The notes under the pieces are model-generated. The model searched no databases. It saw nothing but the letters and a program-made list of their open reading frames with translations, and had not been told where the DNA came from. DNA of 42,333 nt from a virus. Shown here one piece after another: positions 2,456-31,995 of this stretch (positions are counted from its first letter, which is position 1; every line of letters starts with the position of its first letter). The position numbers and the translations under genes were made by a program. The DNA lies in the IMG/VR virus record IMGVR_UViG_3300045988_165172. The stretch is one strand, 5' to 3'.

Positions 2456-2706
2456 TGGCACATTCTGTAGTAGTAAAAAAAGAAGAAAAAGTAAAACATA
2501 TATTTGATTTATTAGGAGATGACTTAACTGAAGAAAATTTTAAAGAAAAATTTAAAAGTATATATCCTAAGGATTGGCAGAGAATAATTTCTACTTACAA
2601 TAAACATGAGAGAAAAACAAAACCAGGGAAAAAACATCCTATGCCTAATCCAGAAAAATATTTAAGTAATATGTTTAAAGTATATTATAAAAAATTAATA
2701 GGATAA
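2456..2706 (+). CDS. Hypothetical small basic protein (83 aa), moron-like
   Basis: ATG at 2456 is preceded by GAGGGAGG. The TTG at 2398 in the ORF track lacks an RBS. The gene has its own promoter-like site and terminator. Confidence 0.6.
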
Positions 2707-2725
2707 GTTTTTAATATATCGTCCC

Positions 2726-2757
2726 AAAAGAGTCTTAAAAAATGAGACTCTTTTTTA
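2726..2757 (+). terminator. Rho-independent terminator
   Basis: AAAAGAGTCT (2726..2735) pairs with AGACTCTTTT (2745..2754) and is followed by a T run. Confidence 0.75.
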
Positions 2758-2778
2758 ATTGGAGAAAGGAGTTGATAT

Positions 2779-3432
2779 ATGAAAATTGCAATATTAGATT
2801 CAGGCATTTTCCCTCATATTGACTTAAGAGAAAAAATAATCTATGGTAAAAACTTTACATCAGAAGGTAATAGCCAAAATGTAGAAGACAATAACGGGCA
2901 TGGTACCCATGTAGCAGGAATTATACATAGTATTATCCCAGAAGCACAGCTATTAATAGTAAAAGTATTAGACAGATATGGCAAAGGCAATATAGAAGAC
3001 GTGACAGAAGGTATATATTATGCTATAGAAAAGAATGTAGATATAATTAATATTTCTATTTCTTTCGAAGATGAAGATAAAGAAATGGAGGAAGCTATAC
3101 AACTTGCAAAGGATAAAAATATACCAGTAATATGTGCAGCAGGAAATAACAATGTAATAGAATATCCAGCACAGTATGGGATTAGTGCAGGGTCCTTAGA
3201 TCCTACTAGCGGGAATATATCTGAATTTTGCTCTAAGGATTGTGTTATATATGCACCAGGAGAAAATGTAACCAGTACATACCTTAATGATTCTTACGAG
3301 ACAATGACAGGTACATCTATGGCAACAGCAAAGGTAACAGGATATATAGCAAAAGAAATAAAAAATAAAAGAGATATAGTTAAATTTGTAGAAGAAAATA
3401 AATATATATATAAAGGAGTAGTAGGAGTATGA
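2779..3432 (+). CDS. Compact subtilisin-like (S8 family) serine protease, no signal peptide
   Basis: Catalytic D-H-S order with the classic contexts: AILDSGI, GHGTHVAG, oxyanion AAGNNN, GTSMATA. Only 217 aa. The TGA stop overlaps the ATG of the next gene (ATGA). Confidence 0.8.
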   Translation: MKIAILDSGIFPHIDLREKIIYGKNFTSEGNSQNVEDNNGHGTHVAGIIHSIIPEAQLLIVKVLDRYGKGNIEDVTEGIYYAIEKNVDIINISISFEDEDKEMEEAIQLAKDKNIPVICAAGNNNVIEYPAQYGISAGSLDPTSGNISEFCSKDCVIYAPGENVTSTYLNDSYETMTGTSMATAKVTGYIAKEIKNKRDIVKFVEENKYIYKGVVGV

Positions 3433-3659
3433 ATGAAGAACTACTAGAAGACAAAGTAAAAACGCATGAACAAAGGATAAACGCACATTCTGACAGATTA
3501 GACAAATTAGAAAATAGACAAGCAGAAATGACAGTAAAATTAGATAATTTATGTAGCACCATAGATAAATTATCAATAAATTTAAACAAACTAACTTATG
3601 CAATTATAACAGCATTGGTTAGTTTTTTCTTTTATGTAATACAAAATCATCTTTTTTAA
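3429..3659 (+). CDS. xhlA: XhlA-like lysis accessory protein (coiled coil plus C-terminal TM helix)
   Basis: 76 aa with an N-terminal coiled coil (EQRINAHSDRLDKLENRQAEM) and a C-terminal hydrophobic helix. It sits immediately upstream of the holin. Confidence 0.7.
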   Translation: MNEELLEDKVKTHEQRINAHSDRLDKLENRQAEMTVKLDNLCSTIDKLSINLNKLTYAIITALVSFFFYVIQNHLF

Positions 3660-3673
3660 TAGGAGGTAATGAG

Positions 3674-3871
3674 ATGAAATTTAATTTAAAACAACAAGTA
3701 AAAAATAAATACTTTTGGGTATCAGTAGTTAGTTTAATTGTTTTAACTGCTCAGCAATTTAACTTGGACTTTATACCAGCTAATTTTCAAGATTATGTAA
3801 ACTCAGTTTTAACAATTTTAGTTGCTATGGGCATACTTACAAATAATAGCACTCCAGGAATCGGAGAATAA
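3674..3871 (+). CDS. Holin (phi LC3 / Phage_holin_1-like)
   Basis: 65 aa. Motif KNKYFWVSVVSLIVL, two hydrophobic segments and a polar C-terminal tail. RBS AGGAGG. Sits upstream of the endolysin. Confidence 0.8.
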   Translation: MKFNLKQQVKNKYFWVSVVSLIVLTAQQFNLDFIPANFQDYVNSVLTILVAMGILTNNSTPGIGE

Positions 3872-3976
3872 GAATAGGTATAAACATAAGGTGAATATTT
3901 TGAAAAGTGCTTAGAAAGCTAACTGCAAGGTCGTTTTTTTAAGCACTTTATTATTTTAGAAAGGATTTGATATTTT

Positions 3977-4786
3977 ATGAATAAGCCAGTGATAGTAGAA
4001 AAATGGCAAAAAAGAAATAAATATGGCAGACCTGGAACAAAATTAAATTATACGAAAGTAGCTATACATTATACAGGAAAGGCGGATGTAAAAGGCATAA
4101 ACACAGTATCTTATTTCAACAATGTTGTGGCGAATGGATACAAAGTTAATGGAAAATATATCTATGCATCCGCTCACTTCGTTATTGATCTAGATGGAAC
4201 TATATACCAACTAATTCCGTTAAATGAAATCTGTTATGCGACTAATAGTGCTAATAGCTACGCTGTAGGAGTAGAAGTAGCTACAACAGGAAGCGACAAC
4301 CATTATACAGACGCTACATATAAAAGTATGGTCGAATTATGTGCGTGGTTATGTGCTAATAAAGGACTTAATCCAAAGCAAGATATAATACGTCATACAG
4401 ATGTTGTAGGGAGAGCATACAAACTATGCCCTATATATATGGTAAATAACCCAGATAAATATGAACAATTCAGATTAGACTGTTATAACGTAAAAGCAGG
4501 TAAAGTCAGCTTAGATAAAGTTGTAAATTGTACTAATGGAAAAGGTAAGGTTACAGTAATTCCTGATGCGACACAAAATAAAACACAACTTGTAAGAATA
4601 TTACAAGACGTAAATATACGCAGTGCAGCTGATTTTACTGATGCAAGTGTAATCGGCGTAGTTAAAAAAGGAGGAGTATATACTGTTGTTGAAAAAATAG
4701 AAAGAACAGGAACAGATATGTATAAACTTAAATCAGGAGTTTATATAACAGCATCTCCAAAATATGTAGAAGTATTTGAAAAATAG
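3977..4786 (+). CDS. Endolysin: N-acetylmuramoyl-L-alanine amidase (Amidase_2/PGRP) with C-terminal SH3b wall-binding domain
   Basis: Amidase_2 motifs are present (AIHYTG, SAHFVIDLDG, YAVGVE, IIRHTDV, KLCP). The C-terminus has an SH3b-like segment (VNIRSAADFTDASVIGVVKKGGVYTV). Confidence 0.85.
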   Translation: MNKPVIVEKWQKRNKYGRPGTKLNYTKVAIHYTGKADVKGINTVSYFNNVVANGYKVNGKYIYASAHFVIDLDGTIYQLIPLNEICYATNSANSYAVGVEVATTGSDNHYTDATYKSMVELCAWLCANKGLNPKQDIIRHTDVVGRAYKLCPIYMVNNPDKYEQFRLDCYNVKAGKVSLDKVVNCTNGKGKVTVIPDATQNKTQLVRILQDVNIRSAADFTDASVIGVVKKGGVYTVVEKIERTGTDMYKLKSGVYITASPKYVEVFEK

Positions 4787-27394: not shown

Positions 27395-27727
27395 ATGATA
27401 TTAAATATAAACGGAAAAGACTATGAATTAAAGTATTCTATGAGAACACTTAAAAAATTATCTTTAAGTGGATTAGATCCATTTAGAGATACAGAGAAGG
27501 TTACGGGAACTGTAGCCAATACAATAAAATCATTTCATTATGGACTTTTGGAAGAAAATAATAAAATGACAGAAGCTATGGCAGAAAAACTAATGGATGC
27601 CTATGTAGCAGAAGGAAATTCAATACTTGATTTATCCTCTTTAGTACTTGAGGCTATAATGGAGGGTTTAGGAATGAATACAGATGATGAAATAGAAGAT
27701 AATGAAGAAAATGAAGAGGGAAAGTAG
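27395..27727 (+). CDS. Tail assembly chaperone (G-like)
   Basis: Position between the major tail and tape measure genes. Acidic C-terminus. The slippery site lies in its last codons. Confidence 0.75.
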   Translation: MILNINGKDYELKYSMRTLKKLSLSGLDPFRDTEKVTGTVANTIKSFHYGLLEENNKMTEAMAEKLMDAYVAEGNSILDLSSLVLEAIMEGLGMNTDDEIEDNEENEEGK

Positions 27728-28062
27728 AGCTTAATAAGTTAATAGAAAATCTATATAAAAAGTTAGTTGGTGGTATGAAAATGCCACCTTCTTCTTTTTG
27801 GCATCTAACTATACATGAAGCTAATTTGATATTAGAGGGCTATAAAAAAGAACAACAAGAGCAATATAACTTAAATCTTTGTTGCCTTCAAAATGCTTTA
27901 GGAATGGCCTTTGGTGGAGGTAAATTCAAACCTATAAATCCATTTGAGAACGCTAAGAGTAAAAAAGAAGCTCACAGAGTAAGTAAGAAACAAAGAGAAG
28001 AAAACTTAGCACATATAAATAATCTGTTTAAAAAATTTGGAGGTGGTGAAAATAGCAACTAA
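27395..28062 (+). CDS. Tail assembly chaperone GT-like fusion made by -1 frameshift at 27718..27724
   Basis: The -1 frame is open from 27715 to 28062 and covers the ORF-track entry 27775..28062. Predicted product 222 aa. Confidence 0.7.
27718..27724 (+). promoter_or_regulatory. -1 programmed frameshift slippery heptamer G GGA AAG
   Basis: X XXY YYZ heptamer in the correct zero-frame phase, 1 nt before the TAG of the G-like ORF. Confidence 0.7.
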
Positions 28063-28645
28063 AGTTTTAAACGTAAAGATTAATGCTGATATAGCTTCCT
28101 TCAAAACCAAAATGCAAGATGCTACAAAATCAATTAAGGATATGACAGAAAGCATTAAAAAGGCATCTGGCAAAAGTAAGCTAAGTGATGCGCTAGGTAC
28201 TAGTGAATTTGGAAAGAAAATAGAAGAAATTAAAACAAAAGCATCTAACCTAGGGCAAGTTTTTAAAGCATTGCCAGGACCAGCGAAAGCACTTGTAGTT
28301 GTAACAGCTTTAACTGTTGCAGCTAAAAAGTTATATGATGCCGGGAAAAAGAGGTTTTTCGAAGGTTTAGATAATATAAAGGATACGGTATCACCAGTTT
28401 TTAATGGGATGCTCACCTCTATAAATGCAGTTAAAGATGCATTTAGTGAGATAACAGGATTTGATTTTAATTTTTCAAGTCTTATTACTACTGGAGTAAA
28501 TTTTGAATCTCAAATGAAAACAGTTGCTACAATAGCTGGAAGTGTAGGGACTGAATTTGACCAGTTAGTTGCAAAAGCTAGAGAATTAGGAGCTGCAACT
28601 ACATTTAGCGCTAGTCAAGTGGGCCAAGCAATGCAATATATGGCT
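28037..28645 (+). CDS. Tape measure protein, exon 1
   Basis: The conserved TMP core (TFSASQVGQAMQYMA) stops abruptly. The remaining ORF-track residues (KHTWSAIKKFIVKNSGLKLGS) are read-through into the intron. The start codon is uncertain (TTG 28037). Confidence 0.75.
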
Positions 28646-29043
28646 AAACATACATGGTCGGCTATAAAGAAATTTATAGTAAAAAATAGTGGGTTAAAAT
28701 TGGGAAGCTAAGTCAAAAGATATGCTAATCAATTACCAATCTATATAGGGATATATAGAAGGTTTAGAGACTAGATAAAGTAAACTAGAACAGTTGAAAT
28801 ATCCACGAAATCCACTACCTTAACAAGTAAGGTTGAAGGTAAAGAGATAGTCCAACTCTTATTTTGAATTTTCATATAGAGTATGCTCTAATAAATATAG
28901 AATAACAAATATGAAAAGGAGAAATGCAATGTATAAAAATATTGATTTTTTTAAAAAGAAAAAAAGAAAGATATGAAAAATATTGGAGTGCATTGTAGGG
29001 AAACCTAAGTTCTAGGATAAAGAGCCTAGACAATGAAGTTTAG
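28646..29043 (+). ncRNA. Group I intron (ORF-less, IA-like) interrupting the tape measure gene
   Basis: R-like GGTTTAGAGACTAGA (28761..28775) and S-like AAGAGATAGTCC (28842..28853). Helices P1, P2, P3, P4, P6, P7 and P8 could be folded, with coordinates given in the first finding. U28645 pairs with G28656. The intron ends in G29043. Confidence 0.8.
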
Positions 29044-31995
29044 ATGGCTGGTTGGTCAACTCAAGAGATGCTTGATGGTGTACAATCTACATTAAATCTA
29101 GCAAAAATAGGGGCTACAGATTTAGGAACAGCAAGTGACATTTTGACTGATGATTTAACAGCACTCGGAATGCAAGCAAATCAAGCTGGCGACTTTGCAG
29201 ATAAATTAGCTGCAACTATTACTAGAAGTAATACTGATGTTGTTTTATTCGGTGAATCTATGAAACAAACAGGTGCTATAGCTGGTTCTTTAGGCGCAAC
29301 AATGACAGATGTATCTACTAGTATAGGACTAATGGCTAATGCGGGTATAAAAGGTTCGAAGGCAGGTATGTCTTTAAAAAATTTATTATCGAATTTAGCT
29401 AACCCAACTGATGCTATGGAAGTAGCATTAAAAAAATTAGGTATGACCGCAGATAAAACTGGTTCGTATTTAAAGACAACATCAGACGGATGTGTAGACT
29501 TAGAAGCGACAGTAAAAGCCTTAAAAGCAGGCACTGACAATATGACTAGAAGTCAGAAAGCATCTTTAATTGCAACTATTGCTGGTAAAAATGCTTTACC
29601 AGGGGTAATGAGTTTACTTAATGCATCTACAGAAGATTATAATAGTTTATCAGAGGCTATAGATAATTCTACGTCTACAGTTAGCATGTTTAATGAAAAT
29701 ATGTCTATAATGGGCAAAAAAGGAAACGATGCAAAAACTACTATAGAGAGTATGAAAAAAGTATTTAGTGAGACAGAATTATCAGCAACAGCATTAGGTT
29801 TAAGCAGTAAAGATTTAGGTTATGCAATTTCATTACTAGGTGATGATAGCAAAGTTACAACTAGTAATGTAGAAGATTTACTAGATGTAATTGAAAGCAT
29901 GGATAATGCTAGTGGGAAAATAGACAGTCTTTGGAGAAATTTAGGAAATGCTAAAAACTTAGATATAAATAAATACATAGATTATAACTCTACATTATCA
30001 GAAATAGATAACTCTATAGTTGGATTAACTTCTCAACAGAAGAAGCAGGTTAAACAACAGTTAAAAGAAAATATGACAGTTAAAGAAGCTAATAAAGTAT
30101 TAAGTAAGTATGGTTTAACCGCTAAACAAGTATCTTTATCAACCATGACAACATCGCAAAAGATGGATTATCTTAGATCTTCACTAAAAGGAATGTCAGA
30201 TGAGCAAATAAAAGCACAACTTGAAACTTTGGGACTTGGAGATAGTTTTGATGAAGTTAACGAAATAGTTGATATGTCAGATGAAAAATACAAAAGATAT
30301 AAAAAGAACCTTAAAGAAATTGAAGGATTATCAACTAGATTAGCTGATAGCATTGATGAAACTACAAAATCTACTTTTTTGGCACTATCAAGTGCTATTG
30401 AAGATAGCTTAATAGGTGCTTTTGAAAAAATGAAACCAGCACTTGTAAGTGGTTCGCAAGCTCTTACGGACTTTTTCTCAAGCTGGAGAAATGGAGATAA
30501 AAACACTTATACTTTTGAAGGCTTAGAAACCGGTTTAGAAAATTTAAAAGCAAAGGTGCAAAATGCTGCTAAACAAATACCTAATCTTATAACAAATGCA
30601 ATAAGTGGAGCAAATCGATTAATATCAGGAGGAGCACTAGATAGTTTATTAAGTATGGGTAGCAATATAGTGCAAAATATATCGCAAGGAATTATAAATA
30701 ATAAAGAAGGTATAACAACGGCTATATCTGATTTAATAGGAAAGATTTGCAACTGGATAGAAACAAATGGCCCTACTATAAAAGAAGCAGGAAGTGTTAT
30801 ATTAAATGCCATAGGAGATGGTATAAGAAATAATAGAGACCAAATTAATACTGCCTGTGGGGTTATTTATGATGCAATAAATGAATGGACTGCTGCAAAT
30901 GCTGAAAATATGGGATTGCTTGGTGGTTCAGTAGCAGATAAATTTATAGGCGGATTTGTTAAGGGGTTTGTTTCAGAAAAATTAGCAAGTATAAGCGGAT
31001 TCTTTGATGGATTATTTGGAAGTAATGGGACTATAAGCCAAAATTTTAGTATGACAGCTGGACTTAGAACCGGGAAAGAATATGGAAGTGGAGCACAACA
31101 GGGATTAGAACAAAGTAAAACAACTACTTCTCAAACTGCATCTGAAATAGGAGATGGAATTTCTAAAAATATAATGACTAAGTTAGAAACTATGAATACT
31201 AGCCAATTAAAAGAGCTTGAAAAAGAATTAAAATCTTTACAAACTACAACTCAAAATGTAGCTAATGGAATAGGCACTAATTTTGGTAAGATAAGAAGTT
31301 CTATTAGGGAAAATTTAGTTGGAAGTGTTAACATAGGCAGAAATCAATTTGTTAACTTAGCTAATATAATAAAAAATCAATCACAAAACGCTAGAAATAG
31401 TGCTACATCTAGTTTTATAAGCTTAAAGAAAGTAATAAGTACTCAAGTATCAGAAGCTAGACAAACTGTTACATCTAAAATGATATCCATTGCTAATGTT
31501 GTGAGAACACAGTCTTGGAATGCTAGAAATGCAGCAACATCTAGTTTTATAAGTCTAGCAAAAGTAATTAGAACGCAAATGGCTAATGCTTATTCTTCTG
31601 TAAGCACATACATGAATAAAATAGCTAGTGCGACTAACAGAACGCTTACAACAAAAGTTAATGTAACTAAAACAGTATCTACAGTTAATGCAGTTTCATC
31701 TAGCATTCCAGTTGTAGCAAACTTACAGAATTTTAGTGCTATAGCAAATAGAAGTTTAGTTGCAACAAATGCATTAGCTACAGCTAGCGTAACACCAGTT
31801 TCTGCTAGAAGTACTTTTGGTGGGTATAGTAATAATGGTAACTTATACAGTAATAAGGTAAGCCCTGAACCTATTTATTTGGATATATCGCTAGAGTTGG
31901 ATTCTAAGATTATCGCAAAAAAAACCGCAAAATATGTAGATGGTGAGCTTAGTGTTATTGATAAAAGGGATAGTAGAAAGAGAGGTGCTAAATAA
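29044..31995 (+). CDS. Tape measure protein, exon 2
   Basis: It begins MAGWSTQEMLDG..., continuing the TMP core motif. No RBS precedes its ATG. It is long, helical and repeat-rich. The spliced total is about 1186 aa. Confidence 0.8.
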   Translation: MAGWSTQEMLDGVQSTLNLAKIGATDLGTASDILTDDLTALGMQANQAGDFADKLAATITRSNTDVVLFGESMKQTGAIAGSLGATMTDVSTSIGLMANAGIKGSKAGMSLKNLLSNLANPTDAMEVALKKLGMTADKTGSYLKTTSDGCVDLEATVKALKAGTDNMTRSQKASLIATIAGKNALPGVMSLLNASTEDYNSLSEAIDNSTSTVSMFNENMSIMGKKGNDAKTTIESMKKVFSETELSATALGLSSKDLGYAISLLGDDSKVTTSNVEDLLDVIESMDNASGKIDSLWRNLGNAKNLDINKYIDYNSTLSEIDNSIVGLTSQQKKQVKQQLKENMTVKEANKVLSKYGLTAKQVSLSTMTTSQKMDYLRSSLKGMSDEQIKAQLETLGLGDSFDEVNEIVDMSDEKYKRYKKNLKEIEGLSTRLADSIDETTKSTFLALSSAIEDSLIGAFEKMKPALVSGSQALTDFFSSWRNGDKNTYTFEGLETGLENLKAKVQNAAKQIPNLITNAISGANRLISGGALDSLLSMGSNIVQNISQGIINNKEGITTAISDLIGKICNWIETNGPTIKEAGSVILNAIGDGIRNNRDQINTACGVIYDAINEWTAANAENMGLLGGSVADKFIGGFVKGFVSEKLASISGFFDGLFGSNGTISQNFSMTAGLRTGKEYGSGAQQGLEQSKTTTSQTASEIGDGISKNIMTKLETMNTSQLKELEKELKSLQTTTQNVANGIGTNFGKIRSSIRENLVGSVNIGRNQFVNLANIIKNQSQNARNSATSSFISLKKVISTQVSEARQTVTSKMISIANVVRTQSWNARNAATSSFISLAKVIRTQMANAYSSVSTYMNKIASATNRTLTTKVNVTKTVSTVNAVSSSIPVVANLQNFSAIANRSLVATNALATASVTPVSARSTFGGYSNNGNLYSNKVSPEPIYLDISLELDSKIIAKKTAKYVDGELSVIDKRDSRKRGAK

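Follow-up and report, generated by a model that had tools for sequence, protein, structure and literature searches.

A subgroup IA group I intron carrying the remnant of a LAGLIDADG endonuclease gene in a phage tape measure protein gene

A tape measure gene in two pieces

The DNA analysed here (IMG/VR virus record IMGVR_UViG_3300045988_165172; 42,333 nt, hereafter the window) encodes its tape measure protein (TMP) on the plus strand in two open reading frames (ORFs), 28037..28711 (224 aa) and 29044..31995 (983 aa), separated by 332 nt. A preliminary description of the sequence had given this gap as about 330 nt and had placed a cut in the conserved TMP core between ...SQVGQAMQYMA and MAGWSTQEML; both points hold. 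The first ORF includes ...SQVGQAMQYMA, the second begins MAGWSTQEML, and the NCBIfam profile TIGR01760 (tape_meas_TP901) matches the first ORF over positions 8–68 and the second from position 69, so that a single conserved domain is split between the two. The Pfam PhageMin_Tail (PF10145) match to the second ORF begins only at profile position 27. The second ORF had also been said to have no ribosome-binding site, in agreement with the 25 nt upstream of 29044 (AAAGAGCCTAGACAATGAAGTTTAG), where a GGAGG-type site is absent.

The start of the gene is ambiguous: the longest ORF opens with TTG at 28037, gene callers choose GTG at 28046, and this GTG lies only 2 nt past a GGAGG at 28039–43 and is also the codon at which the uninterrupted homologue P0001 (below) begins. 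Just 5' of the TMP gene, two small ORFs (27395–27727 and 27775–28062, the second overlapping the TMP start) occupy the place where a pair of tail-assembly chaperones, often joined by a programmed frameshift, would be expected.

A search with the spliced protein retrieved P0001, a TMP of 1183 aa with 99% identity and no interruption, together with many further uninterrupted homologues, all of which, from 99% down to 62% identity, show ...YMAMAGWS... at the junction. On the contig encoding P0001 (L001), the gene is flanked by the same neighbours as in the window, and the L001 DNA, ...GCAATGCAATATATGGCT|ATGGCTGGTTGGTCAAC... (target site ...CAATATATGGCT|ATGGCTGGTTGG...), equals that of the window minus 28646..29043 at the junction. 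Removal of 28646..29043 from the window gives ...TATATGGCT|ATGGCTGG... and the protein ...QYMA|MAGW..., as in this 99%-identical intron-less allele, and the product of precise removal matches the 1183-aa P0001. The DNA comparison by itself leaves the boundary ambiguous by 1 nt because the intron and exon 2 both begin with A; the group I rule, by which a U stands just before the 5' splice site and a G closes the intron, sets the limits at 28646..29043 (398 nt). Exon 1 (28037..28645) thus ends ...QYMA at U28645, and exon 2 (29044..31995) begins MAGW. The preliminary description had asked whether the junction was QYMA|MAGW or QY|MAGW. The former is favoured by 10–11 bits (149.3 vs 138.1 bits with Pfam, 120.0 vs 109.9 bits with TIGR01760), and both profiles run uninterrupted over the spliced junction. 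Without splicing, read-through from exon 1 appends 21 residues (KHTWSAIKKFIVKNSGLKLGS) up to a stop at 28709–11, 66 nt into the intron.

Gene callers annotate two separate ORFs, exon 2 being the 983-aa one, and an ATG happens to open exon 2; on these grounds, the locus could be read as two genes on either side of a non-coding spacer, each with a translation product of its own (224 aa for the first, and a tape measure of 983 aa for the second). Against this stand the split of a single conserved domain at TIGR01760 68|69, the absent ribosome-binding site before 29044, the nature of the spacer (a full-length group I ribozyme whose fold is supported by covariation, described below) and the exact fusion of both parts at the predicted junction in a 99%-identical phage. 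We regard two independent genes as very improbable, and effectively as already refuted.

The split TMP gene is subject to purifying selection, with dN/dS values of 0.15 against L001 and 0.22 against an intron-bearing relative (L002). At least 39 contigs, some of ~42 kb among them, encode the 983-aa product of the window or a near-identical 983-aa form. One cluster at 90% identity combines TMP forms of 983, 1183, ~949 and 875 aa, a mixture compatible with presence/absence polymorphism at three sites.

Covariance-model match and RNA fold

The covariance-model check proposed in the preliminary description, with Rfam RF00028 (Intron_gpI), returned a full-length match at 28638..28874 (model positions 1–253 of 253, 45.3 bits, E = 2.5e-10) in a local scan of 601 nt. 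Scans of the whole 42-kb window gave no Rfam match at either the gathering or the E-value threshold, because scan filters tighten with more sequence. The local score lies below the curated gathering cut-off for RF00028 (50 bits) since P9 is displaced in the window copy and P1 is mis-registered in the Rfam alignment. By comparison, RF00028 scores were 61.0 bits for a copy of the same intron without a 136-nt insert (L012, 3357–3593), 110.6 bits for an intron at a second TMP site of relatives (site B) and 85.3 bits for an intron of Bacillus phage Tavor_SA. A profile built from 19 family members had a single match in the window, in two segments (28639–28860, E = 2.8e-59; 28998–29052, E = 2.3e-8) that flank the 136-nt insert, and no second copy of the family was found in the window by this search.

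A core-pattern scan of IMG/VR yielded more than 120 members of the intron family, from which 19 diverse ORF-free cores were aligned; these included introns from other TMPs, from the large terminase gene of Streptococcus phage SW18, from Tavor_SA and from site B of a relative. Pairs were counted on this alignment for a hand-built structure defined on the window sequence, with 500 shuffles and slid-partner controls. Standard pairs filled 92.0% of cells (72.5% after shuffling, 28–45% with partners slid), compensatory changes were seen at 48 of 71 pairs (shuffled mean 31.2), and the covariation score was 0.532 (0.171 shuffled); none of the 500 shuffles equalled the observed fold in any of these measures.

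All helices of the group I core fold (P3 to P9, with the P3/P7 pseudoknot) form in the window, and the catalytic core spans 28688..28859. At the 5' splice site, P1 pairs 28641–46 with the guide at 28655–60; three of its six pairs are G-U wobbles, including the splice-site U28645–G28656. The preliminary description had proposed this register, which is borne out by a U-G at the splice site in 19/19 relatives and by covariation of the adjacent pair (GC in 10, CG in 9). Its P2 likewise stands, as a 7-bp helix (28662–68/28673–79) with a GAAA loop and compensatory changes at five of seven pairs. The R-like GGTTTAGAGACTAGA and S-like AAGAGATAGTCC elements were found as described, and their GACTA/TAGTC form P7 (28769–73/28848–52), invariant in 19/19 relatives. 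P3 was adopted at 28688–95/28809–16, overlapping the helix first proposed (28687..28692/28812..28817) but with different limits. P4 lies at 28698–703/28729–34, P5 at 28706–08/28724–26, P5a at 28713–14/28719–20 and P8 at 28817–21/28836–40. The hairpin with a GGGA loop within 28741..28758 is real, although it corresponds to P6a (28741–47/28752–58) and not, as first labelled, to P6, which is formed by 28735–37/28761–63. Between P7 and the 3' strand of P3, P7.1 (28774–77/28800–03) covaries at 4/4 pairs and is 97% paired, which supports a place in subgroup IA, as the P7.1/P7.2 elements in the preliminary description had implied; the inner helix next to P7.1 is weaker (53–71% paired).

Towards the 3' end, the domain 28996..29043 comprises P9 (28858–59 plus 28996–99, paired with 29004–09, with a GAAA loop at 29000–03), a 3' hairpin (29011–16/29025–30) and the terminal G29043. 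This omega G and the U28645 just before the 5' splice site agree with the preliminary description, as does a 3-bp P10 between 29044–46 and 28653–55; in the site-B and site-C introns of relatives, P10 measured 4 and 5 bp by eye. The 8-nt loop of the 3' hairpin (AUAAAGAG, 29017–29024; alignment columns 309–316) is essentially invariant among the 19 relatives, and its stem covaries at 6/6 pairs, a pattern that suggests a conserved tertiary contact.

Other pairings were rejected. The P4 first proposed (28699–703 with 28736–40) and the first P8 (28818–32), the latter only a local alternative that is 66% paired in relatives, break in exactly those sequences that vary. The P1 register of the Rfam alignment (U28645–G28660) is attractive for a single G-C to A-U change between site-A and site-B introns; it gives a U-G in only 8 of the 19 sequences, leaves the position unpaired in six and allows P10 in one of three introns. 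Taken together on the same alignment, these alternatives have a covariation score of 0.148, compared with 0.532 for the adopted fold.

From the covariance match, the intron-less allele, the profile continuity, the covariation and the sister copies that bear endonuclease genes (described below), we conclude that the TMP gene is interrupted at 28646..29043 by a group I intron of subgroup IA, as the preliminary description had stated. The element shows each testable defining feature of group I introns, including the U-G in P1 and the terminal G with P10, except the operational Rfam cut-off, which its insert-free sibling passes. Phage genes are also split by other kinds of element (group II introns, inteins, IStrons, or insertion sequences that recoding bypasses), any of which might be imagined here, although this idea has no specific support of its own. 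No reverse-transcriptase or transposase ORF is present in the intron and no other Rfam family matched it, an intein is excluded since the element is out of frame and contains stops, and its P3/P7 pseudoknot, U-G wobble and terminal G are hallmarks of group I; of all the readings considered, one of these other elements has the most negligible chance of being correct.

Endonuclease remnant, length forms and exchange of flanking sequence

Within the intron, the 5' strand of P9 contains a segment of 136 nt (28860..28995) that can be aligned with the two ends of a 253-aa LAGLIDADG homing-endonuclease ORF found in longer copies of the same intron (L015 and L017). What survives of that gene is the ribosome-binding site, the initial 16 codons and roughly the final 14. 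In its intact form, the ORF encodes an HTH at the N terminus along with two LAGLIDADG motifs, and it matches PF14528 (LAGLIDADG_3) with 52.7 bits and phrog_4645 with an E value of 1.4e-44. The missing middle of 674 nt is deleted exactly between two copies of a 13-nt repeat (TTTTTTTAAAAAG), present at positions 301 and 975 of the L015 intron and as a single scar copy at 28946..28958 of the window. Because the deletion is not a multiple of 3, the leftover ORF of 21 codons (MKRRNAMYKNIDFFKKKKRKI, then stop; 28911..28976) is frameshifted, and the window copy thus holds the remnant and this short ORF in place of an intact endonuclease gene. The gutting of this gene by the deletion implies that the copy should be immobile by itself. 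In the preliminary description, about 190 nt after P7' had been called AT-rich peripheral sequence with no credible endonuclease ORF. The absence of an intact ORF is correct, whereas 136 nt of this stretch are not peripheral structure but the remains of a gene; the other ~48 nt are P9, the 3' hairpin and the tail. With the remnant in place, P9 is left with two possible forms, a local stem of 4 bp or a stem of 6 bp from which 136 nt bulge out, and a stable fold of the insert's own was not significant (z = −1.6).

Copies of the intron at the same site in relatives fall into several length forms. The bare ribozyme, 262 or 264 nt and free of the 136-nt insert, was found on seven contigs (L010, L012, L013, L016, L018, L019 and L022), the L012 copy of 262 nt lying at 3365–3626. 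The 398-nt form with the LAGLIDADG remnant occurs in the window and, as identical copies, on three others (L003–L005). A 1027-nt form (L002, 1974–3000; L011) carries an HNH ORF of 230 aa in the P5a loop (PF01844, 49 bits), and in a 1072-nt form (L015, 1068–2139) the 253-aa LAGLIDADG ORF sits at the base of P9, flanked by CUCU and UAGG. The longest form, of 1837 nt (L017, 2317–4153; IMGVR_UViG_3300045988_142268), holds both unrelated endonuclease genes, HNH in the P5a loop and LAGLIDADG at the base of P9. In a non-exhaustive literature search, we found nothing comparable among phage introns with two endonuclease families; Vibrio phage ICP1 has two HNH genes, but these lie in separate introns, unlike the two endonucleases in one intron of L017.

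Comparison of the exons with intron-less L001 revealed 45 differences over 3549 aligned coding positions, 43 of which fall at 28360–28625 and 29166–29271 (−286 to +227 nt of the insertion site) and only two in the other ~2.7 kb; these differences define a recombination or co-conversion tract at 28360..29271. At the 43 positions, the window bases are those of other intron-bearing alleles, with L002 and L015 matching the window over −49 to +227 and L010 and L013 over −286 to −214. Gene conversion during intron gain would be expected to cluster differences in this way, although intron loss in the L001 lineage predicts the same pattern and these data cannot tell the direction.

We propose, with a probability of roughly 0.9, that the window carries a mobile-type subgroup IA intron in the TMP gene of a ~42-kb, temperate-looking human-gut siphovirus, and that this intron splices, arrived by homing and later lost its endonuclease. 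The phage host is probably a member of the Peptostreptococcaceae. In the proposed course of events, the late transcript would fold into the ribozyme, the guide GGUCG (28656–60) would pair with the end of exon 1 with U28645 in the U-G wobble, and an external guanosine would attack 3' of U28645. The freed exon 1 would then attack after G29043, with the 3-bp P10 aligning exon 2, and exon ligation would yield ...QYMA|MAGW... within a single TMP of 1183–1186 aa. The intron would have arrived by endonuclease-driven homing that carried flanking exon sequence along, and subsequent loss of the LAGLIDADG gene through the 674-nt deletion between the 13-nt repeats would have left an immobile passenger still obliged to splice.

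Judged from sequence comparisons, the window copy very likely splices adequately in vivo, because the gene is under purifying selection and relatives tolerate a 762-nt ORF at the same place. It might be argued that the intron is genuine but that splicing has been lost or become too poor since the remnant disrupts P9, leaving TMP as a pseudogene in a defective prophage; the location of the insert in the 5' strand of P9 and the sub-threshold RF00028 score (45.3 bits, as against 61.0 in the insert-free form) would fit such decay. We consider it improbable, as both exons are intact with dN/dS of 0.15–0.22, core helices P1 to P8 are all intact in the window, independent assemblies from the human gut share an identical 398-nt intron on contigs of ~42 kb, and, in carriers of the full 762-nt ORF at the same spot, the TMP exons are intact in the part that was compared (roughly the first 450 aa and the flanks). 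Ribosomes leaving exon 1 could cross P1–P4 before reaching the stop at 28709–11 and so compete with folding. An intron bearing the remnant might accordingly be imagined to splice only partly or conditionally, depending on GTP level, Mg or the run of ribosomes into P1–P4 before 28709, and thereby to set the amount or timing of TMP. If that were true, tail assembly would be controlled through TMP amount or timing and the intron would be no neutral passenger; we rate such regulation as slightly more doubtful even than a loss of splicing.

Known tape measure introns and relatives of the window intron

[quoted passage not shown] The window intron resembles them as a predicted self-splicing element of an essential conserved gene, spread by homing endonucleases with cycles of endonuclease loss, and differs in its host gene. 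The preliminary description knew of no such intron in a tape measure gene; examples were already in print in 2008 (PMC2504315) and 2023 (PMC10448857). Tourasse & Kolsto 2008 (PMC2504315) described group I introns of subgroups IA1/IA2 at three TMP positions (TMP-IVS1/2/3) in prophages of the Bacillus cereus group, most of them without an endonuclease gene, and also listed a TMP intron in Lactobacillus phage JCL1032. Like the window intron, TMP-IVS1–3 belong to subgroup IA and lie in the conserved N-terminal part of a siphovirus TMP. Both sets show several insertion sites per gene, mostly no intact endonuclease gene, presence/absence polymorphism and a P1 adapted to its site. They differ in host clade, the window family occurring in phages of the human gut and having relatives in genomes of Romboutsia and C. 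difficile, and the window site, unlike TMP-IVS1–3, offers a full series of one intron (bare, HNH, LAGLIDADG, both and remnant).

Barth et al. [quoted passage not shown] As in the window family, the ICP1 TMP gene is fragmented by introns, endonuclease content differs among isolates and splice junctions are kept; splicing restores full-length TMP, as is predicted for the window. In contrast, ICP1 is a myovirus, its host is Gram-negative, it has three introns and HNH-3 genes, and its splicing was measured; an RNA fold was not presented in that paper (PMC10448857). Spliced introns have also been reported in capsid and minor-tail genes of Cluster J mycobacteriophages by Pope et al. 2013 (PMC3706429). 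The intron of Bacillus phage Tavor_SA (Wbetavirus, KY963369) belongs to the same ribozyme family as that of the window, with a core 75% identical over 104 nt, and sits between two CDSs that are each annotated "tail length tape-measure protein". It differs in its insertion ~110 codons further downstream (...FAQNGL|KGSDAG...) and in the absence of an endonuclease remnant.

TMP introns have thus been known since 2008 and TMP splicing since 2023, and the window is a well-documented further example rather than a new phenomenon; it leaves existing knowledge of group I introns and tape measure proteins unchanged. It adds a further case of the conserved N-terminal TMP domain as a recurrent homing target in Bacillota phages. 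The complete natural series at one site, from the empty site through the bare, HNH, LAGLIDADG and double forms to the remnant, makes the cycle of homing invasion and decay directly comparable in gut phages. For annotation, gene callers split such a TMP into a "hypothetical" protein of 221–224 aa and a 983-aa "tape measure", which inflates protein-family counts and would distort tail-length estimates drawn from TMP length, and routine contig-wide Rfam scans will under-report group I introns that bear ORFs or remnants.

The same YM(A/G)|MAGW site is occupied in diverged TMPs of four further contigs (L035, L056, L062 and L117), in Romboutsia lituseburensis DSM 797 (L145) and in the Clostridioides difficile chromosome OX246690 (L154). 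This distribution points to the short motif as a recurrent homing target in several Peptostreptococcaceae prophages. Family members on two other contigs (L076 and L104) lie a few nt from this site, and the NAG(I/L)|KGS site is used by the introns of L097 and Tavor_SA. In a genome scan, an exact 25-mer of intron A had no matches; a looser 20-base pattern hit 68 loci, of which 12 were real once P7 and P7' were required, and the remainder, in Bacteroidota, archaea and others, failed this requirement as chance matches.

Further introns of relatives lie elsewhere in the same gene. In L011 (3619–4003) and L012 (3627–4003), a 105-nt mini-exon (MAGW...DILT) stands between two group I introns, the second being the intron at site B (DILT|DDLTALG) that scored 110.6 bits. 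A third TMP intron, at site C of L010 (KNMLA|NMANPTD; ~2640–3991), contains an HNH-type ORF of 306 aa (2827–3747) and was not reported by Rfam. Its first ~45 nt (P1–P2) are identical to the site-B intron and its core is of another type, without the GACUA/UAGUC P7, so that, by sequence, it looks like a chimera of two introns.

Unannotated members of the family were also seen in other phage genes: Clostridioides phage CD1801 (L008, 2335–3120) has one with an internal ORF in its portal gene, and Streptococcus phage SW18 (L009, ~1807–2067) has one in its large terminase gene. GenBank lists the pieces of the CD1801 portal and of the SW18 terminase as separate CDSs.
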